From: Elusimicrobiota bacterium | GTDB taxonomy: Bacteria; Elusimicrobiota; Elusimicrobia; Elusimicrobiales; UBA9959 | Reading direction: 5' to 3' | Assembly: GCA_016234365.1 (NCBI GenBank) | Contig: JACRER010000079.1 | Location: forward strand, 82,233-146,232 | DNA: 64,000 nucleotides | In this document: one piece after another, positions 47,296-64,000 of the stretch | How the letters are laid out: every line of letters starts with the position of its first letter | Numbering within the stretch: the first letter of the stretch is position 1 | Made by a program: the position numbers and the translations under genes | Notes under the pieces: generated by a model | What the model was told of the DNA's origin: nothing | Databases searched by the model: none | The model's input: only the letters and a program-made list of their open reading frames with translations

Positions 47296-47372
47296 CGGCC
47301 TCCGCGCCTTTACCCCTTCCCCGGCTTTATCCTATTATAGATGTGCCGGTTACTATCTAAAGGGGTTTGGAT

Positions 47373-48083
47373 ATGCGACAGCGAACGCTGCTTCTCATCG
47401 ACGACGATAAATTCTGGTCCGGCATGACCGCCGGGTTTTTTAAGAGAAATAATTACAGGGTCGTGACCGCGGCGACCTGCGCCGATGGCCTGCGGCTGGC
47501 CGCGGAGACGCGGCCTGATTGCGTTTTGCTGGATTTTCACCTGCCGGACGCGGATGGTTGCTCCGGCGCATTCGCCATCCGGAATGACGGCAACCTCAAA
47601 AAAACTCCTGTGATAATGGCCAGTTGCGATGGCACAAAAGAACTGACGGCCTGCCGGGATTATAAAGTGGACGGCTTCTTTCTGAAGCCGGGCCGCTATG
47701 AAAGACTTCTCGATATGGTGGATGGGCTTTTACGGCGCGTAGAGTGGGAGCGCGGCATATTGACTCACAAGGATATACGCCTGGATGGCACCTCGTTTAC
47801 CGTTTCCCGGGACGCGAGGCTGGTGGCCAAACTTACGAAAGAGCAGTTCCGGCTGCTTTTTGGGCTTGTAGAACGTACTCCGGATATCGTCAGCAATCTG
47901 GAGATAGCCAGGAACGTTTTCGGCCCGGAAACCGTTGAAGAACGGGAGGACGCTATCCGCGGACTGGCGCACCGCCTGAGGGTGAATCTCGGGGCGCGGC
48001 TGGGCCACCGCATAAAGTCGCGCGCCGGAGAAGGGTGGGGCTACCTCCACCCCGCAGATAAGAAGCGCCAGCAGCGAAAGTGA
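47373..48083 (+). CDS. Response regulator with OmpR-like winged-helix output domain
   Basis: LLIDDD, LDFHL, FFLKP; C-terminal LTKEQFRLL...HRLRVNLG...IKSRAGEGWGY. Confidence 0.88.
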   Translation: MRQRTLLLIDDDKFWSGMTAGFFKRNNYRVVTAATCADGLRLAAETRPDCVLLDFHLPDADGCSGAFAIRNDGNLKKTPVIMASCDGTKELTACRDYKVDGFFLKPGRYERLLDMVDGLLRRVEWERGILTHKDIRLDGTSFTVSRDARLVAKLTKEQFRLLFGLVERTPDIVSNLEIARNVFGPETVEEREDAIRGLAHRLRVNLGARLGHRIKSRAGEGWGYLHPADKKRQQRK

Positions 48084-48121: not shown

Positions 48122-48165
48122 ATCACGCGCGCGTGATTGACTATGTTCGTCCGCTTGCTTATACT
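48122..48165 (+). promoter_or_regulatory. Sigma70 promoter of the Rhs gene with abutting perfect palindrome
   Basis: atcacgcgcgcgtgat (48122-48137); TTGACT (48137-48142), 17 bp, TATACT (48160-48165). Confidence 0.7.
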
Positions 48166-48256: not shown

Positions 48257-51200
48257 ATGTCCGTGATAAAAGCGAGATCGTCGATGCATGCCCTGCGCAG
48301 ACCGATAATGGCTGTCGCCGGGTTATTGTTGTTCCTTGAGTTCCCTCTGAATGTCCGTGCCGCGTCCGTCGCCTGGACCGGCCAGGGCGGGGATTCAAAT
48401 TGGTTCACTTCGGCTAATTGGGGCGGGAATGCCGTGCCTGGGTCCGGGGATGACGTGACAATAGACGCGAACGTTACCGTGACCGCGGCCTCGTTCCCGA
48501 TAAATTTCAATACGCTCACTCTTGGGGGGGTGAACAGCCCCACGCTTAAATTGTCCACTGGTACGGCAAACGCCGGTTCGTTGGTGATCAATAATAAGTC
48601 CGTTTTTGAACAGAACAGTTCTCTGCCGCTCACGTTTTCCTACGTGACGATCAATTCCGGCGGTAAATTGACCCACACTCCCAATTCCAGCTCCCGCCAG
48701 TATTCAGTCAATCTCAATGTTACCGGGGACCTTGTGCTGCAGGCCGGGGCCACCATATATCTGGACTGGTTGGGCTACGCCAGCGACAGCGGACCCGGCA
48801 AAGGGTTTAATGCTGAGGGCGCGTCCGGAGGCGGCGGCGGCCATGGCGGCGCCGGCGGGAACAGCAATGCCGTGAGCGGCGGCATAGCGTATGACCTGGC
48901 TGCAAATCCAGGCGATCTGGGCAGCGGCGGCGGGCGTGCGGGCAGCGGAGCGTATGCAGGCGGAGGTTCCGGCGGTGGTATGGTGTCCGCGGTTATAGGC
49001 GGAACTGCCCACATAAACGGCTTGATAACCGCCGACGGGGGCTACGGTTATGCGGCCAATTCCGGCGGCAGCGGCGGCGGTGCTGGCGGCAGCATAATTA
49101 TTTCGGCCGGTGCCATTGATGGCAGCGGCGTGATGCGGGCCAATGGCGGTGCGGGCAAGACCGGCACCAATCAGTACGGCGGCGGCGGCGGCGGCGGCAT
49201 CATAGCCGTATCGGTGTCCATAGCTGATAATTTTTACGGGAGCAAGTCGGCTTTTGCCGGTTCCGGATATAAAACCGGCGGTACCGGTATCCTGGCGGGC
49301 CGCGTGGGCGCCGGGGCGAAGTATTCCATAACGGTGGATAATGCAAGCGTCCAGTCCAGTACGACGACTAAAATCACCGGCAACGCGGCGATAGGAAGCC
49401 TTTATCTGGCCCGAAGCAGTCTTGTTTTCAGCACGTTCAGTGTTGACAGTCTTATGCTCGGACCAGAGGTTTCCATAACCGGCAACTATCTGGAAACCGG
49501 GGACCTTGTGGTTAGCACGAATGCTGGGAACGGGGTCATATCCAGCAGCCTGACCGTACGCAACAACGCCGTCATCAATTCCAGCGCGTCGCTGGTTTTG
49601 AGCACCATGACCGTGAACGGGGACCTGCTGTTGCTGCCCGGTTCGCAGCTAAAGCATAACGCGAATGAGGGTACGAAACAGTACTGGCTGAACCTGAGTG
49701 TTGGCGGCAATCTGGACCTTCAGGCCGGTGCTACCCTCTACCTAGACGGGCTGGGCTATGGCAGCGACAGCGGGGCGGGCAAAGGAGCCTTACTGGAAGG
49801 CGGTTCCGGCGGAGGCGGCGGACATGGCGGTTCCGGCGGCAGCGCCAATTCGGCCAGCGGAGGAACGGCGAACGACGTGGCGGCAGATCCCGCAGACCTG
49901 GGCAGCGGTGGTGGCCGCGCCGGGTCCAGCGGCGGTTATGGCGGTGGCGGTTCCGGCGGCGGATTGCTGTTGGCGAGGATAACCGGCTCGGCCCATATAA
50001 ACGGCTTGATAACCGCTAACGGTAGTGACGGTTCGTCCAGTAACGCCGGCGGCAGCGGCGGCGGAGCTGGCGGCAGCATAAATATTACGGCCGGCGCCGT
50101 TGACGGCAGCGGCGTGATGCGGGCCAATGGCGGCGCGGGCAAGACCGGCACCAATCAGTACGGCGGCGGCGGCGGCGGCGGCATCATAGCCGTATCGGTG
50201 GCCATAGCTGATAATTTTTATGGGAGCAAGTCGGCTTTTGCCGGTTCCGGATATAAAACCGGCGGTACCGGTATCCTGGCGGGCCGCGCGGCCGCCGGGG
50301 CGAAGTATTCCATAACGGTGGATAATGCTAGCGTTCAGTCCAGCACGACGACCAGAATTACCGGCAACGCGGCGATAGGAAGCCTTTATCTGGCCCGGAG
50401 CAATCTTGTTTTCAGCACGTTCAGTGTTGACAGTCTTATGCTCGGACCAGAGGTTTCCATAACCGGCAACTATCTGGAGACCGGGGACCTTGTGGTGAGT
50501 ACGAATGCTGGGAACGGGGTCATATCCAGCAGCCTGACCGTACGCAACAACGCCGTTATCAATTCCAGCGCGTCGCTGGTTTTGAACACCATGACCGTGA
50601 ACGGGGACCTGCTGTTGCTGCCCGGTTCGCTGCTTAAGCATAGCGCGAATGCGGGTACGAAACAGTACTGGCTGAACCTCACTGTGGGCGGTAACCTGGA
50701 CCTGCGGGCCGGAGCCACTATCTACCTCGACGGGCTGGGTTATGCCAGCGACAGCGGGACGGGCAAAGGAGCCTATGCTGAATGCGCATCCGGCAGCGGC
50801 GCCGGGCATGGCGGTGCCGGCGGCAACACCAATTCTCTGAACGGCGGTCAAGTCTATGACGTGGAGGCTGATCCGGCGGAACTGGGCAGCGGCGGCGGCC
50901 GTGCCGGCTGCAGCGGCGGTTACGCGGGCGGAGGTTCCGGAGGCGGATTCCTGCTGGCGAAGGTGAACGGCGCGGCCCATATAAACGGCTTGATAACCGC
51001 CGACGGGGGCTATGGTTATGCGGCCAATTCCGGCGGCAGCGGCGGCGGTGCTGGCGGCAGCATAGTTATTTCGGCCGGTGCCATTGATGGCAGCGGCGTG
51101 ATGCGGGCCAACGGCGGTGCGGGCAAGACCGGCGCCAGCCAGTATGGTGGCGGCGGCGGCGGCGGAAGGCTAGTGCTCACCTATACTTCCCTCAGCCCGG

Positions 51201-54200
51201 CCATCATTTCCCAGGTAAATGGCGGCGGCGGTTATCAAAGCGGCGGGACAGGGACAATATATAAGGTAAACACCGATTTCCCGCATGTTTCTACCGTAAC
51301 TTTTGGCGGTACGGCCATCGCCGGCAGTGCCCCCGATAAAGCGCACGCTGGAGACCTCGCTGTTACCATAACGTTCGACCAGGCCATGGACACCGCCTCG
51401 CCGCCTTCGGTGACCATCGGCACCGAGGCTCCGTTCGATCAGAATACCGTGGCGGGAAGCTGGCGGGACCTTGGTGTCTGGTCGGGTACTTTTACGATCA
51501 CGGAACAGCTTCCTAACGGAACGCAAACGCTGGTCATAAGTAATGCCAAAGCCCAGAACGGCAAATATCTTGAAGCGGCCGCGACCAGGACGTTCGCCCT
51601 GGACACCGTCAGCCCGGCCGCTCCCGTTCTCTCCGCAGTGGCCGTGGCCGGCGGGAAAGTGGACCTGGGCTTCCAGCGGCTGGAGCCGCCATCCGAGGCG
51701 GGCCTGGTCCTGCAGCGGTCGACCGAGGCCGCGTTCTCTACCTTCACCGTGCTGGCGGACGAACTTGCAACGGGGACGCAGGTCTCCGTGCCGTTCACCG
51801 ACACTCCCGCCGCCGACGGCGCCTACTATTACCGGGCGGCGTTCCGTGACACTGCGGGGAACACCGGCGTATTCTCGGATATGGTTTCCGCGGTCTCCGA
51901 CAGGGTCCCGCCTGTCCCTCCTTCACAGCTTCAGACAGTGTTTGCCGGGGGCAGTGTTTTGTTGAACTGGGATCTGGTGGCCGATGCGGCGGCCTACAAT
52001 ATCTACCGGACTACGTATTCCGCCGTGGCCGCGACCGGTCTGACCCCGGCAATAGCGGGCGCGGCCGGCATTACGGCCGCTGACTCTCCTTCCGCGGATG
52101 CCACTTACTACTACATGGTTACCGCCGTGGACGCGGCCGGCAACGAAGGCGCTCCGGCCTTTGGCACTCTTGCCGTGGACTTGCACGCGCCGGTACTCGC
52201 GATATCCGGGTTTACGGATGGGGGGCAGTACAATAGCGATGTGGCGGTTTCGGTGGCCATAGCAGATTTCTCCTCGGTGTCGTCCACGATCTCGCTTAAC
52301 GGGGTCGTTGTGGGCAGCTTTACCGTGGTTTCAGCTGCTGGGGCATATACCCTCTCGGTGGAAGCCACGGATGCTTTCGGTTCGTCCACCTCGACCGTGC
52401 GCGGCTTCGTTATAGACAAGACCGCGCCGCAGTTCTCCATTCTCTTCCCGGCGGAGGGGTTGGTGACCAACCAGAACGTGACCGCGGTCTACGCCTCCAC
52501 CGACGACTTTACCCCGTATTCTTCCCTGGTCTTCCGCGACGACCTGGGCCGCGCGCCGCCTTTTACCTACTCGACCGAAGGGGTTAAGACCGCCACCTTC
52601 ACCGCCCGCGACCTGGCCGGCAACGTGGCCGCGGCCACCGTAACTTTCACCATAGACAAGACCGGCCCGGGCGCGGTCGCCGACCTGCGCTTCACGCAGT
52701 TCCTGCCGGCCTCCGGCAAGGTGGACCTGGCCTGGACCGCGCCGTACGACTCCCTGAGCGGCCTGGCGTCCTATACGCTTAAAGCCGCCACCTACCCCAT
52801 AACCGCCGCCAATTTTACGGCAGCCCCCGCCCTGTTGGAAGGCATCCCTGCCCAGCCGTCCGGCTCCGCGGAGCAGTTCAGCATACCGGTGAGCACGGCT
52901 CAAACGCTTTACTTCGCGCTGAAGGCGGCCGACGCCGCCGGCAATCTGTCCGCCGTTTCCAATGCCCTGATAATGGACGTGCAGCCGCCGGTGATCTCCG
53001 CCCTGTCGCCTTCCGCCACAGGCTACCTCACGCGCCCGGTCACGGTGGGCGCCGGCATAACAGACGACATCGGCCTCGCCTCCGTGGCCTTCTACGTGGA
53101 CGGCGCTCAGGTTTACGCGCCCGCCGCCCCGCCGTATTCTTTCCACTGGAACACGGTGGCCCGGCAGGACGGGGAGCATACGGTGCTGGTACGCGCGAGC
53201 GACGCCGCCGGCGGCGTAACCGAGCGCTCCGTGGTCTATAACCTTCAGTACCAGCCGCCGGCTACCCCGGCTCTGACCTCGCCATCTTCCGGGGTGGCCA
53301 TAAAGGTGGCCACCTTCACCGTGGCCGGCTTCGCCGAAGCGGGGATAACCGTGCAGTTCAAGGTCGACGGGTATGTGGCCGTGTCCACGCAGGCCGCCGT
53401 TAACGGCGCGTTCAGCGCGGTGGTAACTTTGCAGACCGAAGGCGCCCATGCGTTGACCGTCGCGGCCGCCGACGCCAGGGGCGCCAGCGCCCCCAGCGCT
53501 CCCGTCATGGTGGAGTATAATTTCACCGCTCCCGGGGCCCCGGCCGGGCTGGCCGCCGGGGTTGCCGCCGCCGGCAAGGTGCCTTTGTCCTGGAACGTGC
53601 CCGAAGGGAAGGTCCCCTCCGGCTACCGTGTTTACCGGAGCACTTTCGAGACCGGGCTGGCCGCCGGTACTTCGCCGTCCCAGGCGCCGGCGGCTTCCGT
53701 GACGGGTCTTGCCTACAGCGATCTGCCCTCCTCCGACGGAGTATACTACTACGGCGTTACGGCCCTGGACGCCAGCGGCAATGAAAGCCCGTTGTCCAGT
53801 ATTGTGCCTGGAGTTTCCGACCGCACGCCGCCTTCCGCCGCGCTGGCTTTCAGCGGCGTACAGCCGCCTTTCGGCGCCGGGGATCACCCATTCAACCTGA
53901 CTCTTTCCGGCATTCTGGCCTCCGCGCCGGTGCTCGTGTTCACCCCGCCGGGTATGGACCCGGTGAACGTTCCGCTGTCGGCGTCGTCTCCGACCGTGTG
54001 GATAGGCACCCTTTCCGTAACGCAGGCCATGTCCCCGGGTAATGGCCGCTTCGCCTTCCAGGGCAAGGACCTGGCCGGAAACACCGGCACCGCCATTTCC
54101 GCAGGTTCCGTAGTTGCTCTGGATCTTGCCGGCCCGTCCGGCGCGGTGGAACTGGTCCCCGCCTCGCCGGTGAAGGCTGGGGAGGTATTTGTGACTCTGC

Positions 54201-57200
54201 GGCTTTCCGAGCCAGCCGCGTACACACCAAACCTGGTATGCAGACCGGCCGCGGGGGACCCGATAACCGTTGTCCTTTCAGGTTCAGGCGAGCTCTGGAG
54301 CGGTATTCTCAACGTACCGCAGGGGGCGGACGGCCAGGCCGCGTTCATCTATAACGCCTCCGATCAGTTGGGGAACCTGGGCACCAGCTTGTCCGCCGGC
54401 GGCGTATTCACCATAGATACTGTTCCCCCGGGAGCGCCGCTGTACGCGCGGGCGTCCGCTAAAACAGCCGGCGCGGTAGAATTGAACTGGAGTTCGCCGA
54501 TAGGCGGGACGCCGTGGCGGTATAAAGTCCACCGCGACGGAGTGGAGGTTTCCTCTTCCGTGGCGCCAAAGGCGGACGGCAGCGGTACCTACCTGGAAAC
54601 TCCGGTGGACGGCGAGCATTCCTATACCGTTCTGGCCGTGGACGCGGCGGGCAACGAGGGCCCGCTTTCCCAGGCGGCGCAGGTAACGGCGCGTTCAACG
54701 CCGCCCGCGGCGCCGCTCTCTTTGAACGCCGCTCTTAACCAGTACGGCCGCGCGGAGCTTTCCTGGCAGCCTGGTGACGCGGACGCCGCCTCTTACGCGG
54801 TTTACAGGACCACTTACCAGCTTGTTGCCGCGGCGGGGGCTTCGGGCGCCCCGGTCTCGCAGCCGCCCTACGTGGATACCCCGGAAAAGAACGGCCTGTA
54901 CCATTATGCGGTATCGGCTTTCGACTACGCCGGCAACGAATCGGCGCTGTCGCAGGAAATTCTTTTAAACTGGGACAAAGCGCCGCCGGTGATAACCATA
55001 ACGGGAGCGGCTGACGGAGCGATATATAACTATGCCCCGGCGCCGGCCTTCAGCGCCGCCGACGGCGTTTCACCGCAGATAACTATTTACGCCAAACTTG
55101 ACAATGTCCCGTTCCTTTCCGGCGCGGTCGTGGCGGCGGAGGGGGAGCATACCCTGGTCGTTACCGCCGTGGGCCAGTCGCTGGCCTCCTCCACCAGGAC
55201 CGTGCATTTTACCGTGGACCTCACCTCCCCGGCGGTCTCCATAGCCGGCGCGGAAGACGGGGCCTTCTACTCCTCCGAGGTCGTGCCGGTGATCTCTGCC
55301 TCCGACGCGCGGCTCGCCGCCGTGCAGTTGGTTCTGGACGGGGCGGCCTATACGGCCGGGGTGCCGGTCTCGTCCGACGGGCGCCATCTGCTGTCCGCGA
55401 CGGCGCGGGACCTGGCCGGCAATATTTCCGTGGCCAGCGCGGCTTTCACTCTGGACCTGCCGCCTCCGGCGCCAGCCGGGTTCACGTTCAACGCGCAGGA
55501 GACCGCCGGCGCCGTGCTGACCTGGAATTCCCCGGCCGCCGACACCGCCGGCTACCGCGTTTATAAGGACGGGCAGCTGCACTCGCAGGGGCTGGTGCGC
55601 GAGCTCAATTATTCCGACCCCGCTTTTGTGCAGGGCGAGGCCCATGTCTACGGGGTTTCGGCCGTGGACGCAGCCGGCCATGAGGGCGCGCGCGCCGTCA
55701 TCAACATTCCCGCTGTCACTTTTACGCTGGATTCTTACGGCGTCGCCGACAGCAGTTCCGCGGTTTTCGTGCGCGGCTTCTTCGATACGGCGCGCCTGAG
55801 GCTCGGCAATAACGGGCCCCTCCCGCAGCTTATAGGGCCGGTCACGGCGGCGCTGGTTTCCGGCGGGGTTTCCGCCCAGGCTCCGGCGGTCTCCGTGGCG
55901 GCCGGCGGTTCCGCGCTGGTCTCCCCGGTGCTGCCGGTCCCGGCGGAACTGCCGGCTTCTTCCCAGCTCAGGGTCACGCTTGCGCTGCCCGCCGGCATAG
56001 GTTCGGCGGCGTCCTTCACCCGGATATTCACCGTGGCGGCGGTCTCGCCGCGCGAGCCTATAGTTGAACTGCTCACCGAGCCTCTGGTGCGCGGCATGAA
56101 CAGCAGGGTACAGGTGAAGTTCAACAACAAAGGTTCGGCGCCGCTGGAGATAAAGACCTGGCCCGGCGACATAGCGGCGCAGCTCTCTACCCCGGAGGGC
56201 ACCACCCTGGCGCAGGGCCGGCTGCAGCAGATCGGCGGCGGCGCCCAGCCCTGCCCCGGCGGCTATTTCGTGCAGGTGGGCGCGCAGTCCAGTTACATTT
56301 TTGAGCCTATAAGCCTGTTCGTGCCGGCCGGGCTGGGTGACAGCGGGCAGGTCTCCGCCGTAATAGAACGGGTTTATAGCGGCCTGGCCGGTTCCTCTCC
56401 AGCGGCCGGGGCGCGCGTATTCTCCGCGACCGTTACGTTGTCAGGTGTTGCGGAGCCGCCCTATTCCGCTACCGTGGTGCCGGAACGCGCCGTTTACGAC
56501 CAGGGCACGGCGGTGAAACTTGCCGGGTCCGCGCTGCTGTCCGGCGGTTCCCTGCTTCCCGGCGCAACGGTGCAGATAGGCGTTTTGGCGCGCGGCTATG
56601 AACGCACGGCTTCCACGGTGACGGACGCTTCCGGCCATTACGAACTCACGTTCGCTCCCACTCCGGGCGAATCCGGTATCTATTCCCTCTGGGCCGCCTA
56701 TCCCGGGGTCCTCAACCGGATGCAGCAATCCAGTTTCACCATAGTCGGGTTCGGTTTCCAGTATTCCGATTACAGCGCGAGCCTGGTGCAGAACTCCTCC
56801 GTCGCTTTCCGCGTGAACCTGCTCAATTCAGGCCAGACCCCCCTGGCGGGCCTGACGGCCTCCGTGGAGGGCTCCGCGGCCGGGGTGGCGCTGTCGCTGG
56901 ACCAAGACTCTCTGCCGGCGGGCCTGGGCAGCGGGCAAAGCGCCCCGCTGAGTTTCACCGCTTCCGCCTCGGCGGCGGCGGCCGTGGGAACCTATAACTT
57001 CACCGTTAACGTGGAGGAGGCAGACGGCTACAGGCGCAGCCTGCCGGTAAAGATAGCGGTGGCGGCCGCTTCCCCGGTACCTTCAGCGTCGCCCAACGCT
57101 TTCAAGATAGGCATGTCGGCCGGGCAGACCAGGACGCTTACCGTGACCTTGTTGAATAACGGCATGGCTGACTGGAAAGGCATGTATCTGGCCGCGCCGT

Positions 57201-60200
57201 CCCTGGCCTGGGTCTCCTTCACCGGAAATACGGCCATAGGCGATATACCTCCCGGCGGTTCCGCGGTGGTTACGCTCAAGGCCGCTCCTCCGGCCGGCCT
57301 GGCCAGCCAGGCTTTCGCTTCCAACCCGCTTTTTGAAGCGCGTTCTTCCAACGCGGCCCCGCTGCCGGTCTCTTCCCTTATAACCATAACCGCTTCCGGG
57401 CTGGGCAACGCTGTTTACAACGTCATCAACGCCGACAAGCCGGCGGTCAACGGCGCGGGCACGGGCATAGCCGGCGCCGAGGCCGAACTAATAAGCCTGG
57501 ACGTGGCCGGCCTCAGCGCTAAGGGCACCGCCGACGCCAACGGGGTCATACAGGTGCTTAACGTGCCGGCCGGGCGCTATTCCTATACCGTCAGGGCGGC
57601 CGGTTTTGAGAACGCTTCCGGCGTGGAGACCATAGAGCCGGGAGTGACGCTGCAGCGCGACGTGGCGCTGCCCACGGATGTGGTGAGTTACGAGTGGACG
57701 GTCACGCCTACCACCATAGCGGACACCTACAACGTCTCGCTCAGCATCACTTTCAAGACCGACGTGCCCGCCCCGGCCCTGGCCATGTCCTCGCCGTTGT
57801 TCAACTTCGAGCTGCCGGAAGAAGGCGGCGGGGCCGACGGGCAGTTCACGCTTACCAATAACGGACTGGTCTCGGCGCGCAATATAGAGCTGAACTCTTC
57901 CGGCGATGCCGCCATGTCCGTTTACCTGCCGTATTCCTCCATCTCCGAGCTCCGGCCGGGCGCCAGCGTGGTGGTGCCGTTCCATGTTGCGCTGGCGCAC
58001 GCCTCCTGCCATAGCGGCACGCTGGGCGGAAACTATAAGTATACCGCCGCCTGCGGCCAGACAATGACCAAATCCCTACCGTCGGCCAAGGTTAACGCCG
58101 GGCAATGCGCCTCCATAGGCGCCAGCACCAATACTGCCTCCTCTTCCGGCGGCTTTATTGGAGGTGGCGGCGGCACGGGCGGGGGAGGTGCGTCCGGGGT
58201 CAGCATTTCAGTGCCGTCGTCTTTCGTGTCTTACGTGGTGGCCAATCCGCCGGCGGTGACGCCTACTTCCAAAATGTGCCGCGAACCGGCCGAGAAGAGA
58301 CCCTCGGAATGCGTAAGCGGCGTTTGCGTTGACGGGGCGGCCTACAGCGACGCGGGCGGCGATCCGCGCATTCCCGTGGCGGACCTGTCCGTGGAGCTCC
58401 CCAGTTTGGGCGGGGCGCTGCCCTTCGCGCGGGTGTACGACAGCCTGGACATGGACGCCGGGGCTTTCGGGCGTTCCTGGCTCCACTCCTTTGAATCGCG
58501 CGTGGCGTTGCGTTACGCAGGGTCTGCGTATTTTACCGGCGCGGGCGGGACGGCGCAGGCGGGCATTCCGGCCGTAAGCGCCTCCGGGGCCGTGGCTTTA
58601 CGCGGCCCGGCCGACGTTCTGGCCGAAGTGCGCCCGCCGGACGGGCGGAGGCTCGTTTATACCGCCAACCCTGACGGTTCCTTCGCGCCGCCTTCCGGTG
58701 AAAGCTCCACGCTGGCGGTCATAGGCTCCACGGCGGCTCCGGAAGGGTTCGCCTGGACCACTCCGGGTAAGACCGTCTACCGCTACGACGCTTCCGGCCG
58801 GCTGGTTTCCATAACCGACAACAATGATTCCGCTATAACGCTGGAATACGGCGGCGGGCGGCTTACGGCCGTGAAGGACCCGGAGGGAAGGACGGTGTAT
58901 TCGTTCGTTTACAACCAGGACGGGACATTGGCCTCCGTAACGGACCTGGGCGGCCGTTCGGCGGCGTTCGGTTACGCGGACGGTATGCTGGCCTCCGCGG
59001 ACGGCCCCGAGGGCCATACGGCTTATGCCTACGGCGCCTACGGGATAGACGGGCTGGCGGCGTTCGGCGCCGGCGTGCTGGACGACCTGCAGGCGGACGT
59101 GAAGACGCTGAAACTGATCACCGGCGTAACCTCGCCCAACGGGCACGTGACCAGCTTTACCTACGGCGCGCCGGCGCAGGTGGTGGACTACGTTTCGCAG
59201 GCTTCGGCCATAAATACCGGCACTAACTATACCGGTGCCTCCACCGGCGAACTGTCGTTCTGGGGCTTCAGCGCCCAGCCGGTTACGGCGGGCAAGCCGG
59301 AACTCGCGGAGGAGAAGTATTATTATGCGCCGCTGCTTGTCACGCAGTCCGGCTACGCGCTGGACAAGGCGGCGTTCGCGCGCTGGTATTTCCCGCAGGT
59401 GTATGTTACCACCGGCGAAATCGGCAGCAGGGGCGCGTTCACGTTCCGGCACACCATGGACGAGCTGCTGGGCATAGGCTCCACGGAAGTGACGGACCCG
59501 CTGGGCCGCAAGAGCACCTACAAATGGGAGGTCTTGAGCGGGCGCGCGGTGGGGATGGAGCGGACCGATCCTGCGGGCGGCGCTACGGCTACGGCCTACG
59601 ACACGCGGCGCAACCCGGTGCAGGTGACCGACCGCGCCGGCAGGGTAACGCAGTTCGTCTACGATTCCAAGAACAACGTAACGGCGGTGATAGACCCGCT
59701 GGCCAACCGGACCAACTTTACCTACGAGCCGATCTTTAATGGCCTGGCCTCGGTAATGGACCCGCGCGGCAACAGCAGCTCTTTCGGCTACGACGCCAAA
59801 GGCAACCTGACCAGCGCGCAGGACGCGCTGGGGAACGCCGTGCAGATAGCGTACGACGCCCACGGCCTGCCCGTAAGCATAACGGACCCGCTTAACCACA
59901 CCGTAACCATAACGCGCGACGGCAACGGCTACGCCACCCAGATAACGGACCCCTTAACCCGCAGCGCGCACATGGGCTACAACAATATCGGCCGGGTGGT
60001 GTCTTTCACGGACGGCGCAAACAGGCAAACCCAGTTCGCGTACGATACGGCCGACAACCTCACCCAGGTTACCGACGCCATTAACGGCGCAACGCATTAC
60101 AACTACACCGCTGGCATAATAGCCGAGGGTAAGTTGCTTTCTTCACTTGAGGACGCCAAGAGCCACACCACGCAGTTCGGGTACGACACCCGCGGCAGGC

Positions 60201-62170
60201 TTACTAGCGTAACCAACCCCCTTAACCAAAGCCGCTCTTACGAGTACGACGAGGCCAACAACCTTACCAAGGTAACCAAGGCCGACGGCGTACAGATAAC
60301 CTTTGAATACGACAATCTTAACCGGCTGACCAAGAAGAATATCCCCGGCGACCCTGTAGCCTACGCCTACGACGCTGCAAGTAATCTTATAAGCGCCGAA
60401 GACAACGCCAGCAAGATACAAATAGGCTACGACGCCGGCGACCGTCCCACGCGTGTGATCCAGACCAACAAGGCCGCCAACCTCACCAGCCAGCTAGATT
60501 ACGAGTACGACGCCAACGGCAACCGCACCAAAATGACCTTGGCAGCGAACCCCGCACCGTTCGTATGGAACTACACGTATGACAACCTGAACAGGCTGAC
60601 CAGGATAACAACGCCCGACAACACCAACATCGCTTTTGAATACGATGCAATGAGTCGCCGCACAAGAATGGGTTACCCCAATGGCACTGAGGCCAACTAC
60701 ACCTATGACAACGCCAGCCAGCTAACCGGCATAACGCATAAGCGCACCGCCGACAACACCATAATAGCCCAAGCCAACTACCAATACGACACCGCCGGCA
60801 ACCGCACCAGCATGACGGATACGGCAGGCACGCATAGCTATGGTTATGATGACCTTCATAGATTAACAAGCGCTAGTCATCCCACAGCTTCAGCCCTGGA
60901 CGTGAAAAATGAAATATTTAACTACGACGGTGTAGGCAACCGCCTGAATGACGCTGTCCGGTCAAACTACACCTACGACGCCGCCAACCGCCTTAACAGC
61001 GATTCACTGTACGATTACACCTACGACCAAAACGGCAACCGCAACGGCGAAACGGATAAAGCCACCAATGCGCATACAGCCTATTCGTACAACGCGAAGG
61101 ACCAATTTGTAAGTGCGACCATGCCAGATGGCACGGCGGCGACTTATAAATACGATACGCAGGGCAGAAGAATGGAGAAAGTGGTTTCCAGCGGGACGGT
61201 CACAACCACCACACGATATGTTTATGATGGCAATGATGTAATTGCCGTGCTGGATGGGAATAACGCCTTAAATGCCATGTTTACTCATGGGCCCAAAATG
61301 GATGAGCCTCTTGTTATTAAACATGATGGGCAGAATTATTTTTATCACGCGGTTGGGGTGCAAAATGTGGCAGCTATAACAGATAATTCCAGCGCGATAG
61401 TTGAAACGATGGAATATCAAGCCTACGGCAAACCTGTTGTGGAAAACAGAGTCGGAGCTGTTTTTGATAAATCCACAATTGGGAATATATTCCTCTATGC
61501 TGGCAGGGAATATGACGCAGAAACCGGATTTATAAATGATCGAGCCCGCGTTTATGCTTCCAAAACCGGAGTGTTTTTACAGGAAGATCCGCTTAGAAAT
61601 ATAAATCAATATGCTTACGTGGGGAATAATCCAATAACCAGGATGGATCCATTGGGTCTTGACTGGATTGACGATGCGGCTAATGCAGGCGCTGGATATG
61701 GAGACGGGTTAACGATGGGTTTGACCCGGTTGGTGCGTGAAAAATTATTAAACCTCCACAATATTGATTATTGCTCCGATTTGTACCGGGGAGAATTTGC
61801 GGTTGGAATGGGTGTGTCTACTGTGGCGGGATTTTTTACGGGTGCTAGTGAGATAAATGCAGCAGAAGTTATTCAGCCAGGAACTAGGGTTTATCGAGTT
61901 TGGGGAGATGGAGCTGGCCCGTGGGGGAAATATTGGACAACGGTTGATCCTGGAACAATTCCTAACTATCGAAGCGTTGCAGGGTTGCCGTCAGTAAACA
62001 GTGGACGGTTTGTAAGTGAGGGTGTATTGGCAAATACAGAAGGTGTTGTTAGTGGCCGTGCCTCAACTATTCTGCCTGGGCAAACGGGCGGATTAAACGA
62101 GCTCAGAATTACAAATCCTGAAGCCGCAGTTGTGCTGGATCATGTATCGGGTGCAAACCCTGGATTTTAG
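48257..62170 (+). CDS. Giant Rhs/YD-repeat polymorphic toxin (4637 aa): signal peptide, three Gly-rich repeats, FN3/Ig stalk, DUF6531-like, YD shell, Rhs core, C-terminal toxin
   Basis: Signal-like HALRRPIMAVAGLLLFLEFPLNVRA (start may be 48284); many D-x-A-G-N Ig/FN3 units; FARVYDS..FGRSW; YD repeats; YAGREYD..TG, NPITRMDPLGL. Confidence 0.93.
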   Translation: MSVIKARSSMHALRRPIMAVAGLLLFLEFPLNVRAASVAWTGQGGDSNWFTSANWGGNAVPGSGDDVTIDANVTVTAASFPINFNTLTLGGVNSPTLKLSTGTANAGSLVINNKSVFEQNSSLPLTFSYVTINSGGKLTHTPNSSSRQYSVNLNVTGDLVLQAGATIYLDWLGYASDSGPGKGFNAEGASGGGGGHGGAGGNSNAVSGGIAYDLAANPGDLGSGGGRAGSGAYAGGGSGGGMVSAVIGGTAHINGLITADGGYGYAANSGGSGGGAGGSIIISAGAIDGSGVMRANGGAGKTGTNQYGGGGGGGIIAVSVSIADNFYGSKSAFAGSGYKTGGTGILAGRVGAGAKYSITVDNASVQSSTTTKITGNAAIGSLYLARSSLVFSTFSVDSLMLGPEVSITGNYLETGDLVVSTNAGNGVISSSLTVRNNAVINSSASLVLSTMTVNGDLLLLPGSQLKHNANEGTKQYWLNLSVGGNLDLQAGATLYLDGLGYGSDSGAGKGALLEGGSGGGGGHGGSGGSANSASGGTANDVAADPADLGSGGGRAGSSGGYGGGGSGGGLLLARITGSAHINGLITANGSDGSSSNAGGSGGGAGGSINITAGAVDGSGVMRANGGAGKTGTNQYGGGGGGGIIAVSVAIADNFYGSKSAFAGSGYKTGGTGILAGRAAAGAKYSITVDNASVQSSTTTRITGNAAIGSLYLARSNLVFSTFSVDSLMLGPEVSITGNYLETGDLVVSTNAGNGVISSSLTVRNNAVINSSASLVLNTMTVNGDLLLLPGSLLKHSANAGTKQYWLNLTVGGNLDLRAGATIYLDGLGYASDSGTGKGAYAECASGSGAGHGGAGGNTNSLNGGQVYDVEADPAELGSGGGRAGCSGGYAGGGSGGGFLLAKVNGAAHINGLITADGGYGYAANSGGSGGGAGGSIVISAGAIDGSGVMRANGGAGKTGASQYGGGGGGGRLVLTYTSLSPAIISQVNGGGGYQSGGTGTIYKVNTDFPHVSTVTFGGTAIAGSAPDKAHAGDLAVTITFDQAMDTASPPSVTIGTEAPFDQNTVAGSWRDLGVWSGTFTITEQLPNGTQTLVISNAKAQNGKYLEAAATRTFALDTVSPAAPVLSAVAVAGGKVDLGFQRLEPPSEAGLVLQRSTEAAFSTFTVLADELATGTQVSVPFTDTPAADGAYYYRAAFRDTAGNTGVFSDMVSAVSDRVPPVPPSQLQTVFAGGSVLLNWDLVADAAAYNIYRTTYSAVAATGLTPAIAGAAGITAADSPSADATYYYMVTAVDAAGNEGAPAFGTLAVDLHAPVLAISGFTDGGQYNSDVAVSVAIADFSSVSSTISLNGVVVGSFTVVSAAGAYTLSVEATDAFGSSTSTVRGFVIDKTAPQFSILFPAEGLVTNQNVTAVYASTDDFTPYSSLVFRDDLGRAPPFTYSTEGVKTATFTARDLAGNVAAATVTFTIDKTGPGAVADLRFTQFLPASGKVDLAWTAPYDSLSGLASYTLKAATYPITAANFTAAPALLEGIPAQPSGSAEQFSIPVSTAQTLYFALKAADAAGNLSAVSNALIMDVQPPVISALSPSATGYLTRPVTVGAGITDDIGLASVAFYVDGAQVYAPAAPPYSFHWNTVARQDGEHTVLVRASDAAGGVTERSVVYNLQYQPPATPALTSPSSGVAIKVATFTVAGFAEAGITVQFKVDGYVAVSTQAAVNGAFSAVVTLQTEGAHALTVAAADARGASAPSAPVMVEYNFTAPGAPAGLAAGVAAAGKVPLSWNVPEGKVPSGYRVYRSTFETGLAAGTSPSQAPAASVTGLAYSDLPSSDGVYYYGVTALDASGNESPLSSIVPGVSDRTPPSAALAFSGVQPPFGAGDHPFNLTLSGILASAPVLVFTPPGMDPVNVPLSASSPTVWIGTLSVTQAMSPGNGRFAFQGKDLAGNTGTAISAGSVVALDLAGPSGAVELVPASPVKAGEVFVTLRLSEPAAYTPNLVCRPAAGDPITVVLSGSGELWSGILNVPQGADGQAAFIYNASDQLGNLGTSLSAGGVFTIDTVPPGAPLYARASAKTAGAVELNWSSPIGGTPWRYKVHRDGVEVSSSVAPKADGSGTYLETPVDGEHSYTVLAVDAAGNEGPLSQAAQVTARSTPPAAPLSLNAALNQYGRAELSWQPGDADAASYAVYRTTYQLVAAAGASGAPVSQPPYVDTPEKNGLYHYAVSAFDYAGNESALSQEILLNWDKAPPVITITGAADGAIYNYAPAPAFSAADGVSPQITIYAKLDNVPFLSGAVVAAEGEHTLVVTAVGQSLASSTRTVHFTVDLTSPAVSIAGAEDGAFYSSEVVPVISASDARLAAVQLVLDGAAYTAGVPVSSDGRHLLSATARDLAGNISVASAAFTLDLPPPAPAGFTFNAQETAGAVLTWNSPAADTAGYRVYKDGQLHSQGLVRELNYSDPAFVQGEAHVYGVSAVDAAGHEGARAVINIPAVTFTLDSYGVADSSSAVFVRGFFDTARLRLGNNGPLPQLIGPVTAALVSGGVSAQAPAVSVAAGGSALVSPVLPVPAELPASSQLRVTLALPAGIGSAASFTRIFTVAAVSPREPIVELLTEPLVRGMNSRVQVKFNNKGSAPLEIKTWPGDIAAQLSTPEGTTLAQGRLQQIGGGAQPCPGGYFVQVGAQSSYIFEPISLFVPAGLGDSGQVSAVIERVYSGLAGSSPAAGARVFSATVTLSGVAEPPYSATVVPERAVYDQGTAVKLAGSALLSGGSLLPGATVQIGVLARGYERTASTVTDASGHYELTFAPTPGESGIYSLWAAYPGVLNRMQQSSFTIVGFGFQYSDYSASLVQNSSVAFRVNLLNSGQTPLAGLTASVEGSAAGVALSLDQDSLPAGLGSGQSAPLSFTASASAAAAVGTYNFTVNVEEADGYRRSLPVKIAVAAASPVPSASPNAFKIGMSAGQTRTLTVTLLNNGMADWKGMYLAAPSLAWVSFTGNTAIGDIPPGGSAVVTLKAAPPAGLASQAFASNPLFEARSSNAAPLPVSSLITITASGLGNAVYNVINADKPAVNGAGTGIAGAEAELISLDVAGLSAKGTADANGVIQVLNVPAGRYSYTVRAAGFENASGVETIEPGVTLQRDVALPTDVVSYEWTVTPTTIADTYNVSLSITFKTDVPAPALAMSSPLFNFELPEEGGGADGQFTLTNNGLVSARNIELNSSGDAAMSVYLPYSSISELRPGASVVVPFHVALAHASCHSGTLGGNYKYTAACGQTMTKSLPSAKVNAGQCASIGASTNTASSSGGFIGGGGGTGGGGASGVSISVPSSFVSYVVANPPAVTPTSKMCREPAEKRPSECVSGVCVDGAAYSDAGGDPRIPVADLSVELPSLGGALPFARVYDSLDMDAGAFGRSWLHSFESRVALRYAGSAYFTGAGGTAQAGIPAVSASGAVALRGPADVLAEVRPPDGRRLVYTANPDGSFAPPSGESSTLAVIGSTAAPEGFAWTTPGKTVYRYDASGRLVSITDNNDSAITLEYGGGRLTAVKDPEGRTVYSFVYNQDGTLASVTDLGGRSAAFGYADGMLASADGPEGHTAYAYGAYGIDGLAAFGAGVLDDLQADVKTLKLITGVTSPNGHVTSFTYGAPAQVVDYVSQASAINTGTNYTGASTGELSFWGFSAQPVTAGKPELAEEKYYYAPLLVTQSGYALDKAAFARWYFPQVYVTTGEIGSRGAFTFRHTMDELLGIGSTEVTDPLGRKSTYKWEVLSGRAVGMERTDPAGGATATAYDTRRNPVQVTDRAGRVTQFVYDSKNNVTAVIDPLANRTNFTYEPIFNGLASVMDPRGNSSSFGYDAKGNLTSAQDALGNAVQIAYDAHGLPVSITDPLNHTVTITRDGNGYATQITDPLTRSAHMGYNNIGRVVSFTDGANRQTQFAYDTADNLTQVTDAINGATHYNYTAGIIAEGKLLSSLEDAKSHTTQFGYDTRGRLTSVTNPLNQSRSYEYDEANNLTKVTKADGVQITFEYDNLNRLTKKNIPGDPVAYAYDAASNLISAEDNASKIQIGYDAGDRPTRVIQTNKAANLTSQLDYEYDANGNRTKMTLAANPAPFVWNYTYDNLNRLTRITTPDNTNIAFEYDAMSRRTRMGYPNGTEANYTYDNASQLTGITHKRTADNTIIAQANYQYDTAGNRTSMTDTAGTHSYGYDDLHRLTSASHPTASALDVKNEIFNYDGVGNRLNDAVRSNYTYDAANRLNSDSLYDYTYDQNGNRNGETDKATNAHTAYSYNAKDQFVSATMPDGTAATYKYDTQGRRMEKVVSSGTVTTTTRYVYDGNDVIAVLDGNNALNAMFTHGPKMDEPLVIKHDGQNYFYHAVGVQNVAAITDNSSAIVETMEYQAYGKPVVENRVGAVFDKSTIGNIFLYAGREYDAETGFINDRARVYASKTGVFLQEDPLRNINQYAYVGNNPITRMDPLGLDWIDDAANAGAGYGDGLTMGLTRLVREKLLNLHNIDYCSDLYRGEFAVGMGVSTVAGFFTGASEINAAEVIQPGTRVYRVWGDGAGPWGKYWTTVDPGTIPNYRSVAGLPSVNSGRFVSEGVLANTEGVVSGRASTILPGQTGGLNELRITNPEAAVVLDHVSGANPGF
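48650..51270 (+). repeat. Three tandem glycine-rich units, period 984 nt (328 aa)
   Basis: ggcagcggcgtgatgcgggc at 49121, 50105 and 51089; 49121-49700 nearly identical to 50105-50680. Confidence 0.9.
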
Positions 62171-62180
62171 GAGAAATTGT

Positions 62181-62612
62181 ATGAACGAATTTTATTTAAT
62201 TTCGGGCGAGTCTGCTGCGTATGGCCCTATTGCATGTCGGATTCTTGAACGTTATGCGACAGGGACAGGGAATGATTACGCAGTTGTCACGGTATCACCC
62301 AAAATACAGAAAAGTATTTATAACACAGAAGTTGAAATTTCAATAGTAATATTGGTCAGTAGATGGGAAGGATATTCTCTGTTTTCTCCTTCTAAGTGGC
62401 CTATTCCTGTGAATGTGTATCTCCTCAAGCAAGATAATGCGGCAATGCCCGAGAGGGGGAACATAGGTGAATTGGCTTCTAAGAGTGCTTTGAAAACATA
62501 TTCAACAAGCGAAATGGTTATTAAGTGTTTTGATATCAACAAATTGACTCTTGTTGATAGAGGTGAGATTTATATTTCAAAAGAAGAAGCGCGGAAATCC
62601 ATGGTCGATTAA
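62181..62612 (+). CDS. Putative immunity protein for the Rhs C-terminal toxin
   Basis: Starts 10 bp after the toxin stop with an AGGAGA RBS; low GC like the toxin tip; SRWEGYSLF..WP motif. Confidence 0.7.
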   Translation: MNEFYLISGESAAYGPIACRILERYATGTGNDYAVVTVSPKIQKSIYNTEVEISIVILVSRWEGYSLFSPSKWPIPVNVYLLKQDNAAMPERGNIGELASKSALKTYSTSEMVIKCFDINKLTLVDRGEIYISKEEARKSMVD

Positions 62613-62686
62613 GGATGGCACAGCGAAAAACAGAAGACTCCGGTGTGTAGATCCGGAACGTTAAACGATAACTCAACAATTTGTTT

Positions 62687-64000
62687 ATGTCTAGAATAGC
62701 AGGAATAACTTCAAACACGAACTCGGCAATGCCTGGCATGCCGAATGTGTTCTCTTTATTCCCTGAAGTTTGCCCTTCACGCTTTGCTGTTCCTATACCC
62801 CGTAAGAAATCAGCAAAATATAAATTACATAAAACTAAGGGCAACACCAGCCAGTTCACTTATGACGGCCAGGGCAACCTTACCCGGGCGCAGGACGCGC
62901 AAAGCCACGCCGTAACTATCGGCTATGATTCCAACGGCCTGCCTGTAAGCATTACGGACCCGCTTAACCACACCGTAACCATAACGCGCGACGGCAACGG
63001 CTATGCCACCCAGATAACGGACCCCTTAACCCGCAGCGCGCACATGGGCTACGACAATATCGGCCGGGTGGTCTCTTTCACGGACGGCGCAAACAAGCAA
63101 ACCCAGTTCGCCTACGACACGGACGATAACCTTACCCAGGTGACCGACGCCATAAACGGCGTAACGCATTACAACTACACCGCCGGCATAATAGCCGAGG
63201 GTAAGCTGCTTTCTTCACTTGAGGACGCCAAGAGCCACACCACCAGCTTTAATTACGACACCCGCGGCCGGCTTACCAGCGTAACCAACCCCCTCAACCA
63301 GACCCGCTCTTACGAGTACGACGAGGCCAACAACCTTACCAAGGTAACCAAGGCCGACGGCGTGCAGATAACCTTTGAGTACGACAGCCTGAACAGGCTG
63401 ATAAAAAAGAATATCCCCGGTGACTCCGTCAGTTACGCCTATGACGCAGCAGGCAACCTTATAACAGCCGAAGACAACGCCAGCAAGGTCCAGCTAGGCT
63501 ACGACGCCGGCGACCGCCCCACCAAAGTAATACAAACAAATAAATCAGCCAACCTTACCAGTCAGCTAGACTACGAATACGACCAGAACGGCAACCGCAC
63601 CAAAATGACCCTGGCCGCCAACCCCAGCCCGTTCGTATGGAACTATACCTACGACACATTAAACAGACTTACAACCATCCACACCCCAGAAAACACGACC
63701 ATCACCTTAGAATACGACGCTTTAAGCCGCCGCACCAGGCTGGTCTACCCCAACGGCACGGAAGCCAACTACACCTATGACGCGGCAAGCCAGTTGACGG
63801 GCATAACTCACAAAAAAACGACGGACAACACCATAATAGCCGAAGCTAATTACGCTTACGACAACGCCGGCAACCGCACCAGTATGACCGATACAGCGGG
63901 CCAACACAGTTACGGTTATGACGACCTGCACAGGCTGACCAGCGCCAACCACCCCACAGCCTCGGCCCTGGACGTAAAGAACGAAGTGTTCAATTACGAC
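62687..64000 (+). CDS. Orphan Rhs core module (3' partial; may be silent)
   Basis: Frame open from 62672 to the window end; from 62840 colinear without indels (offset 3072) with 59768-60928 of the main Rhs gene; lacks the N-terminal domains. Confidence 0.85.
   Translation, partial: MSRIAGITSNTNSAMPGMPNVFSLFPEVCPSRFAVPIPRKKSAKYKLHKTKGNTSQFTYDGQGNLTRAQDAQSHAVTIGYDSNGLPVSITDPLNHTVTITRDGNGYATQITDPLTRSAHMGYDNIGRVVSFTDGANKQTQFAYDTDDNLTQVTDAINGVTHYNYTAGIIAEGKLLSSLEDAKSHTTSFNYDTRGRLTSVTNPLNQTRSYEYDEANNLTKVTKADGVQITFEYDSLNRLIKKNIPGDSVSYAYDAAGNLITAEDNASKVQLGYDAGDRPTKVIQTNKSANLTSQLDYEYDQNGNRTKMTLAANPSPFVWNYTYDTLNRLTTIHTPENTTITLEYDALSRRTRLVYPNGTEANYTYDAASQLTGITHKKTTDNTIIAEANYAYDNAGNRTSMTDTAGQHSYGYDDLHRLTSANHPTASALDVKNEVFNYD

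Follow-up and report, generated by a model that had tools for sequence, protein, structure and literature searches.

How could an Rhs toxin that enters the Sec pathway pass the outer membrane of a diderm bacterium? The question is raised by a 64,000-nucleotide stretch of an Elusimicrobiota genome (assembly GCA_016234365.1, contig JACRER010000079.1, here C59, positions 82,233 to 146,232), referred to as the window and numbered from its first letter. To our knowledge, Rhs toxins of diderms have been studied almost only as type VI secretion system (T6SS) cargo or as components of Tc toxins. The window contains a giant open reading frame (ORF) whose product is likely a Sec-exported polymorphic Rhs toxin for killing competitors, built from a β-helix head, an immunoglobulin (Ig)-like stalk and a payload with a TNT-like tip, and accompanied by a cognate immunity gene. 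How a Sec-dependent Rhs protein gets across an outer membrane and arrives at its target thereby becomes a specific question that can be tested within a single lineage. The genome (G000) comprises 2.72 Mb in 100 contigs, with 62% G+C and 96.5% completeness. The only sequencing run containing the stretch was a groundwater metagenome, and no RNA run containing it is listed.

Architecture of the giant Rhs protein

The giant gene remains open without a break for 4637 codons from an ATG at 48257. Its parts, and the two features that follow it, were assigned as below.

48257..62170, + strand: giant Rhs polymorphic toxin gene, 4637 aa, 470.6 kDa (ORF, Pfam, NCBIfam)
48257..48361, + strand: Sec-type signal peptide, aa 1–35 (sequence reading; conserved in homologous loci)
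48362..51406, + strand: head of three Gly-rich repeats, modelled as a right-handed parallel β-helix (repeats, AlphaFold2 (AF2), fold search)
51407..58006, + strand: stalk of Ig-like/FN3-like β-sandwich domains, ~2200 aa (Pfam, NCBIfam, colinear homologues)
58007..58327, + strand: Cys-rich, Gly-rich linker, aa 3251–3357 (6 of the 11 Cys of the protein)
58382..61414, + strand: DUF6531 and YD/RHS repeat shell (Pfam DUF6531 and RHS_repeat; NCBIfam YD_repeat_2x)
61415..61660, + strand: Rhs-associated core, ending in PxxxxDPxGL (TIGR03696)
61661..62167, + strand: toxin tip, 169 aa, its last ~105 aa (61847–62167) modelled as a TNT-like NADase/ADP-ribosyltransferase (ART)-fold domain (homologues, AF2, fold search)
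62181..62612, + strand: predicted cognate immunity gene, 143 aa, no known family (linkage; complex model)
62681..64000, continuing to C59:147468, + strand: orphan Rhs C-terminal module (855-aa frame; separate DPSGL motif; tip Gly-rich, hydrophobic and unrelated)

An initial annotation, made from the letters of the window alone, had described a giant Rhs ORF with a Sec-type signal, Gly-rich repeats, a long FN3/Ig stalk, a Cys-rich linker, a DUF6531-like domain, a YD shell, a PxxxxDPxGL motif at 61631–61660 and a 169-aa low-GC tip, followed by a small gene and a second Rhs module. Every one of these elements was recovered, the motif at exactly those positions (aa 4459–4468).

By direct reading, the leader's n-region is basic, its hydrophobic core is 13 residues long and its cleavage site is V-R-A/A-S; there is no lipobox Cys. 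A W-x-G...N-W...N-W...D-D-x-x-I-D motif starts at residue 39, and 14 homologous loci keep this N-terminal order of hydrophobic leader, AxA-like site and motif. In the public record the gene is called as 4571 aa, beginning 66 codons downstream, skipping 48257–48454 and losing the signal peptide. Because the leader-plus-motif layout is conserved in the 14 homologous loci, this call is too short, and 48257 was taken as the start.

Within the payload, DUF6531 was matched at aa 3379–3431 just over its cut-off (25.0 versus 24.1 bits), the Pfam RHS_repeat family was matched in 10 stretches (E 9e-74; TIGR01643, E 1.9e-63), and the Rhs-associated core (TIGR03696) spans aa 4387–4468 with 62.6 bits against a cut-off of 32.5. 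In four parts, namely the shell, the core and its motif, a variable tip and a predicted immunity gene downstream, the protein matches an Rhs/YD polymorphic toxin. PxxxxDPxGL is the autoproteolysis site in studied Rhs proteins. From the core domain only, we infer that the tip may be released by autoproteolysis.

The stalk and a family of stalked giants

The stalk gave Pfam matches to Big_13 and Big_7, sub-threshold matches to Big_6, CarboxypepD_reg and NPCBM_assoc, and an NCBIfam match to an OmpL47-type domain. A search with its end (aa 2750–3290) returned 15 other proteins, those with a named source belonging to Elusimicrobiota; 11 of them carry RHS repeats and four do not. With the 11 RHS-bearing relatives and the window protein, stalked Rhs giants thus number at least 12, and public databases list them as automatic annotations only.

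Comparison of individual relatives revealed where these proteins diverge. The 5095-aa P0161 is 48.6% identical to aa 1362–4478 (3185 aa), covering stalk, linker, shell and core, and the likeness ends just past DPLGL, beyond which its tip is unrelated. Among the stalked homologues, the six whose motif is clean all end in tips unrelated to one another, so that an invariant tip, named at the outset as an observation that would count against a polymorphic toxin, was not what was found. The elusimicrobial P0155 (4582 aa) is 47% identical over aa 1104–3284 and then continues into a different, non-Rhs C-terminus. This head-and-stalk scaffold is thus reused with different payloads among the stalked homologues, and head, stalk and payload appear to behave as separate modules. 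The alternative C-terminus of P0155, whose head and stalk are as in the window protein, is a ~520-aa module with an H-E-x-x-H motif and without a Pfam family.

The head and two-partner secretion

The three Gly-rich repeats of the head lie at 48362–49516, 49541–50500 (77% identical to the first) and 50525–51277 (63% identical to the first). An AF2 model of unit 1, built with 22 natural sequences, was a right-handed parallel β-helix with a pLDDT of 83.9 and a pTM of 0.86. Fold matches were ranked by VIA (Z and root-mean-square deviation, rmsd) and also by Foldseek. In the VIA ranking the best match was the two-partner secretion (TPS) domain of EtpA (Z 15.2, rmsd 3.8, 216 aa), followed by that of HMW1 (Z 14.5, rmsd 4.7, 229 aa); HxuA (Z 10.7) and FHA (Z 10.6) were also listed, among adhesin, autotransporter and lyase β-helices at Z 9–12. 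Foldseek returned no match to the head model at E ≤ 0.001, the best being E 0.17, and Pfam gave a sub-threshold G8 match only.

Genomes were sampled at the level of the phylum (401 genomes), the class (301) and the genus (19 others). The survey of the N-terminal architecture that the initial annotation had proposed located the head unit in 52 of the 401 phylum genomes (E ≤ 1e-10), concentrated in three families, where it leads open frames of about 1000 to 9000 aa. Within one protein it is present 3–5 times; a single head unit had no relative in the related-locus search of genome contigs. Similar heads occur outside the phylum, in giants that carry labels such as Auribacterota, Lentisphaerae and Thermoanaerobaculia. 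Very large animal proteins, among them tenascin-X-like ones from bivalves, are matched by the Gly-rich head with high scores as well, which may be compositional or G8-related.

The fold ranking raises the possibility that the head works like a TPS domain and that, as with CdiA or FHA, an Omp85-family transporter exports the protein starting from its N-terminus. The layout as a whole mirrors that of CdiA and other two-partner toxins, with a leader, a β-helix N-terminus, a long shaft, a pre-toxin motif, a variable toxin, an immunity gene and orphans, and a small Omp85-domain protein of 469 aa is encoded on contig C27. The window protein differs from CdiA, however, in having an Rhs capsule instead of FHA repeats and VENN, and Pfam gave no match to Haemagg_act anywhere in it even at E ≤ 10, so that the TPS-like ranking of EtpA and HMW1 over generic β-helices stands against the absence of the family and against the presence of those generic β-helices in the same list. 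Repetition of the unit 3–5 times per protein is unlike a secretion signal. No TpsB partner was found in the genome: the sole POTRA_2 match was sub-threshold and fell within the BamA ORF, the control for this search responding in five genomes, and no Omp85 gene adjoins the giant gene. A search for ShlB was also blank, but its control was silent too, so that this result says nothing. On balance, a TPS-like function of the head is decidedly improbable.

The tip belongs to a large candidate toxin family without a Pfam model

Pfam gave no match to the tip at E ≤ 10, TNT (PF14021) included. An exhaustive phmmer search returned 747 cluster representatives at E ≤ 1e-3 and 344 at E ≤ 1e-10, all of which match tip residues ~66–169 and always at their own C-terminus. 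A domain scan covering 30 of the 150 listed hits found RHS_repeat in 16 (three of these also with SpvB and TcdB_toxin_midN), DnaJ in two, Ig domains in one and no family in 10; one further protein, P0123, is CdiA-like, with Fil_haemagg_2 and PT-VENN. Such a spread over scaffolds appears to be the behaviour of a mobile polymorphic-toxin domain. Within the phylum sample the tip was present in three of 401 genomes, and in none of the 19 other genomes of the genus.

The AF2 model of the tip was confident over residues 71–169, with a core pLDDT above 84. The best fold match was Tne2 (PDB 6B12; Z 10.7, rmsd 3.3, 104 aa), followed by the Serratia Rhs1 C-terminal toxin (6XTD; Z 9.7, rmsd 3.0, 99 aa), both shown experimentally to be NAD(P)+ glycohydrolases (PMC10539506). 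Next came Tse6 (Z 6.5), fungal NADases (Z 5.6) and TNT (Z 4.5), and most of the remaining matches were ART-superfamily enzymes and toxins. The top order given by Foldseek agreed with this ranking. The model thereby shares the palm fold of TNT, Tse6 and Tne2, and the domain-wise modelling that had been suggested for this protein resolved both ends of it, the head as a β-helix and the tip as a TNT-like fold, the latter with weak Foldseek E-values. A feature search of the Atlas with the tip also pointed to TNT-domain clusters, at 0.93, as a lead only. Together these results indicate that the tip probably represents a new family by sequence, with the TNT-like NADase/ART fold, and that this family is probably one more clade of toxins directed at NAD. 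The Tne5 clade, which was described in 2026, resembles SPN most closely (PMC13285283); a Tne5-like identity of the tip was rejected, SPN being matched at only Z 3.6.

With regard to activity, a hydrolase seems marginally probable, a transferase doubtful and some other activity quite unlikely. The alternative to an NAD(P)+ glycohydrolase is an ART acting on a macromolecule (protein, RNA or DNA). An R-S-E pattern is typical of ARTs, and the nearly invariant set of the tip family, Arg79, Thr93 and Glu147 (tip residues), is an Arg / Ser-Thr / Glu-like set that resembles it. Lower in the fold list are diphtheria toxin (Z 5.1), Scabin (3.9), TreTu (3.8), TreX (3.7) and ParT (3.7). Against this, the two clearly best matches are proven NADases, the next three (Tse6 and two fungal enzymes) are also NADases, and the domain is short (~105 aa), like the TNT-type palm. 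A macromolecule-modifying transferase is accordingly held possible, on the doubtful side.

A predicted cognate immunity gene

The small gene after the tip encodes a 143-aa protein with no Pfam match, no homologue but itself in the protein search and no usable match in the Atlas. A profile of its family found three holders among the class genomes, namely the genome of the window, G092 and G449. In all three, the family member directly follows an Rhs ORF ending in a tip homologue (E 9e-19 in one search). The Rhs giant of G092 (5055 aa) has a quite different head and yet carries the tip and immunity gene as a pair; the pair therefore moves as a unit.

The tip and the 143-aa protein were also modelled as a complex, which scored 0.75 (0.75, 0.63 and 0.86 in three runs), the best of three controls scoring 0.00. 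Of 80 solved complexes, 58 attained the mark used, as did two of 110 mismatched pairs; because own alignments were used here, these counts apply only approximately. The runs agreed in at least 76% of contacts, with a partner pLDDT of at least 66. The modelled interface includes the invariant domain residues Trp17, Gly25, Gly44, Pro46, Asn49 and Glu83. Other NADase immunity proteins are reported to plug the cleft (PMC10539506), and the modelled interface, covering conserved cleft residues, would match this mode. The complex model thus supports tip–immunity binding, as a prediction of it, and together with linkage in three of three genomes it supports the initial proposal that the small gene is a cognate immunity gene. 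These results define a new candidate immunity family together with the large tip family.

Orphan modules, the G+C shift and the integrity of the ORF

The second Rhs module, which the initial annotation had noted, begins at 62681, runs past the end of the window and has its own motif and a different tip. Its protein is 74.8% identical to aa 3837–4485 of the main protein, and 59768–61181 and 62840–64253 share 82% nucleotide identity (1415 bases). Past the window, at the end of C59 (L051:2699–3765), the orphan tip is Gly-rich, hydrophobic and without a Pfam family, and it is followed by a 110-aa hydrophobic ORF that runs to the contig end; the two may be a membrane-acting toxin and a membrane immunity protein. 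Two further orphan core ends with tips are located at the starts of contigs C53 and C23 (C53:1–1206 and C23:1–826; L049 and L050), both tips Gly-rich and hydrophobic, and the C23 copy is frameshifted. A small membrane-like ORF comes after the core end on C53, and homologous ORFs of ~365 aa follow on both contigs.

The G+C content of the tip is 0.43–0.46, compared to 0.59–0.69 upstream, and G+C at third codon positions (GC3) falls from ~0.8 to 0.47. The drop occurs in the last 450 codons of the main gene, and values stay low through the immunity gene and the orphan. A low-GC 3' end is as expected if cassettes were acquired and exchanged by recombination.

The same shift could arise if the 4637-aa ORF were an assembly chimera in which a high-GC stalk gene had been joined to a low-GC Rhs end of a different strain or organism. 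Such an error might be suspected from the fall in GC3 within one ORF and from the repetition of 59768–61181 at 82% identity. Moreover, the Logan contigs from the same run are short, many other contigs fit only partly, and none of those listed bridges the shift at 59.9–60.3 kb. However, the frame stays open across the shift, and P0161, which comes from another assembly, is colinear straight through it (aa 1362–4478). The 11 other stalk-end homologues with RHS repeats join the same parts, and a low-GC 3' cassette is what Rhs recombination predicts. Identical pieces among the Logan contigs tile 57000–64000 at a similar depth of 3 to 8.3; one contig spans 60952–62285 (shell end, tip and start of the immunity gene) and another 62312–62983 (end of the immunity gene and start of the orphan). 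A chimeric origin is highly improbable.

The host and routes of export

The host is a diderm, as had been assumed, with Omp85/BamA and four secretins. Its GlmS shares 72% identity with the protein from an uncultured Elusimicrobia MAG and 53% with the next record, likewise of Elusimicrobiota, which places it as an uncultured member of this phylum. The genome survey for T6SS, type II secretion system (T2SS)-like and type IX secretion system (T9SS)-like machinery that the initial annotation had called for found no T6SS, the four secretins and some T9SS tails. No match to TssC (the T6SS sheath), Hcp, PAAR or VgrG (Phage_GPD) was found in the 96.5%-complete genome, with controls that responded. Likewise, a Pfam scan of the protein at E ≤ 0.01 gave no PAAR, VgrG, TPS, RTX, autotransporter or T9SS-tail match, in agreement with the initial annotation; a hidden PAAR or VgrG, which would have spoken against its reading, was thus not found. 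At this threshold the protein consequently lacks the N-terminus of a T6SS-delivered Rhs effector, the C-terminal Por_Secre_tail or CHU_C domain of T9SS cargo, and the C-terminal RTX signal or β-barrel of a type I secretion system (T1SS) RTX adhesin or autotransporter; its N-terminus is a Sec leader. LptD was not found in the genome, with a control that responded in two proteobacteria only, and a search for SprA_N was blank with a silent control, which says nothing.

Across the phylum sample, an Rhs core was present in 65 of 401 genomes versus TssC in none. Five Rhs proteins of the phylum were read at the N-terminus (that of the window, one plain, two TcB/C-like and another giant), and all have a Sec-type leader. 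From these leaders, together with the 65 Rhs cores and the absence of TssC, Rhs export in the phylum therefore appears to be Sec-dependent and T6SS-independent.

The secretin loci are of PilQ type, MshE/GspE type, Tad type and one unclassified type. The protein might pass through a T2SS-like system, or leave by vesicles or lysis, and act untethered as a diffusible giant bacteriocin or as an adhesin-toxin able to bind targets independently. A cleavable signal peptide, the missing lipobox and the lack of a known anchor at either end would suit release, as would a secretin locus with PilM/PilO-like genes, a GspE/MshE-type ATPase and a pseudopilin. T2SS-like loci also adjoin giant genes in Omnitrophota (10.1101/2023.11.21.568195). 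In contrast, all four secretin loci are distant from the giant Rhs gene, and a folded 470-kDa protein with an Rhs capsule might not be able to pass a secretin. Release of an untethered protein is considered unlikely.

T9SS tails were observed elsewhere in the genome, Por_Secre_tail being matched in four ORFs (on C39, C13, C36 and C11), two of which exceeded the cut-off; a 1089-aa ORF on C87 (L047:13542–16811), next to a Tad-like locus, carries CHU_C. In the window, a 323-aa ORF at 3610–4581, which follows a 2070-aa giant frame, was matched weakly to PorV (E 0.0032, below the cut-off). Despite the tail-bearing ORFs and the weak PorV-like ORF, a T9SS route for the giant Rhs protein was rejected, as its C-terminus is the toxin.

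Relation to known toxin systems

Signal-peptide-only ('T2SS/Sec-dependent') Rhs toxins have been listed as a class found 'in all bacteria' from comparative genomics only (Zhang et al. 2012, PMC3482391, Table 1). Members of that class likewise have a signal peptide, RHS repeats, a variable C-terminal toxin, a downstream immunity gene and standalone cassettes, and, as that paper's passages on the class describe them, are without the 3300-aa scaffold of β-helix and Ig-like domains. This catalogue modifies the initial interpretation. A polymorphic Rhs toxin with an immunity gene and an orphan in a diderm host, with neither a T6SS nor a TPS partner found, stands, but the premise that diderm Rhs toxins are typically T6SS cargo or Tc components, whereas the Sec-exported WapA is from monoderms, was overstated. 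The signal-peptide-only category was already known; new are the scaffold, the families of the tip and of the immunity protein, and the pattern across the phylum. No description of this architecture was found in the literature on Elusimicrobia with Rhs, or on T6SS-independent Rhs with a signal peptide, supplements being outside the scope of that search.

WapA of Bacillus subtilis has a Sec leader, a wall-associated N-terminal part, an Rhs shell, a C-terminal toxin and an immunity gene, and mediates contact-dependent inhibition. It shares the leader, shell, C-terminal toxin and immunity gene with the window protein, but its host is a monoderm with no outer membrane to cross, unlike the present host with its Omp85 and secretins. 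The N-terminal part of the window protein is 4–5 times longer than that of WapA, and unrelated to it.

The T6SS Rhs NADase effectors Rhs1 of Serratia marcescens (6XTD) and Tne2 of Pseudomonas protegens (6B12) combine an Rhs shell, a TNT-like tip and a small unrelated immunity protein, as here. T6SS Rhs effectors, however, carry PAAR and ride VgrG, components that together with Hcp and TssC were not found in this genome, and there is no sequence-level similarity between the tip and the Tne1–Tne3 structures. The TcB–TcC fusions of Tc toxins likewise enclose a C-terminal toxin in an Rhs cocoon; the tip family occurs on proteins with SpvB, TcdB_mid and RHS, and TcB/C-like fusions with Sec-type leaders exist in the phylum (G284 and G317). 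The window protein differs from these in having no SpvB or TcdB_toxin_midN match at E ≤ 0.01, TcA being outside this search.

Giant surface proteins of Omnitrophota are also multi-thousand-residue extracellular proteins of uncultured diderms. They reach 10,000+ aa, have many transmembrane segments, lie beside T2SS-like loci and have been proposed to act in attachment (10.1101/2023.11.21.568195). As presented in that source, they differ from the window protein in not being Rhs toxins with immunity genes.

The target could alternatively be a eukaryote, or a prey or host cell, in which case the protein would serve a predatory or host-associated way of life by adhesion and intoxication. Enzymes that consume NAD(P) have been described as potent trans-kingdom toxins (PMC13285283), the Omnitrophota giants have been proposed to serve in prey adhesion (10.1101/2023.11.21.568195), and Elusimicrobiota figure in a list of phyla that tend to encode huge proteins, where they are connected with host association (PMC11573180). 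A dedicated and tightly linked immunity gene with orphan cassettes is, however, the signature of conflict between siblings or competitors, and the sample was groundwater. A eukaryotic, prey or host target is regarded as improbable.

A proposed model for Sec-dependent Rhs killing

According to the Sec-exported toxin model, the precursor would enter the periplasm via Sec, where the leader would be cut, and the protein would then cross the outer membrane by a route other than the T6SS, TPS, a T9SS tail, the T1SS or an autotransporter. Head and stalk would keep the Rhs capsule at a distance from the cell, and contact with a competitor would set free the enclosed tip, which would either deplete NAD(P)+ or ADP-ribosylate a target, while the 143-aa immunity protein would protect the producer. 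Through the 1.4-kb stretch shared with the orphan at 82% identity, recombination may swap the end of the shell together with tip and immunity gene, and the low G+C of the 3' end would point to acquisition of the present cassette. That such a device acts on contact, is tethered to the surface and is anchored by one end is what we infer; 'tethered' is a guess, because neither end of the protein has a recognisable anchor.

Several observations weigh against the model. Among the routes looked for, none across the outer membrane was identified, and the two ends of the protein are without a recognisable anchor. The first DPxGL-like element of the core is degenerate (D-P-L-R-N by sequence reading), because of which self-cleavage is assumed from the family. 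For the tip, no Foldseek match had E ≤ 0.001 (best 5.9e-3), profiles searched against PDB sequences, including the solved Tne1–Tne3, gave chance rows only, and hhalign aligned it to a TNT-bearing giant with 10.6% probability; by sequence it belongs neither to Pfam TNT PF14021 nor with the solved Tne1–Tne3. Its Arg / Ser-Thr / Glu-like set fits a transferase as well as a hydrolase. In G096, the ORF downstream of a more distant tip relative is unrelated to the immunity family. The unbridged G+C shift among the listed contigs adds to these points.

A broader proposal can be framed around the same data, in which an undescribed Elusimicrobiota route moves half-megadalton proteins across the outer membrane. 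The Sec leader and β-helix head would serve as its recognition or mounting module, and the stalk as a universal carrier with swapped payloads, these being Rhs-encapsulated toxins in most members and other C-terminal modules in some. The outcome would be contact-dependent Rhs warfare free of a T6SS. We regard this proposal as speculative and, taken as a whole, somewhat unlikely.

Upstream region and neighbouring genes

The giant gene comes after an exopolysaccharide cluster (Wza, Wzc, Wzy-like and many glycosyltransferases) and a regulator, with the following features directly upstream.

47367..48083, + strand: OmpR-type response regulator (Pfam Response_reg and Trans_reg_C)
48137..48165, + strand: promoter-like site TTGACT-17-TATACT, 10/12 consensus (consensus scan, pattern match only)

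The promoter-like site is located ~90 bases 5' of the start of the giant gene. A homologous response regulator is present upstream on the same strand in seven of 28 related loci (L017, L018, L019, L031, L033, L037 and L044), and an OmpR-type regulator at head-bearing giant genes suggests regulated expression. Further upstream, a 1372-aa ORF without a Pfam family occupies 24670–28788, just before the Wza/Wzc-type polysaccharide export genes. At the other end of the window, positions 1–3597 fall inside another giant ORF, whose 2070-aa frame on C59 contains Big_13 and DUF7305.

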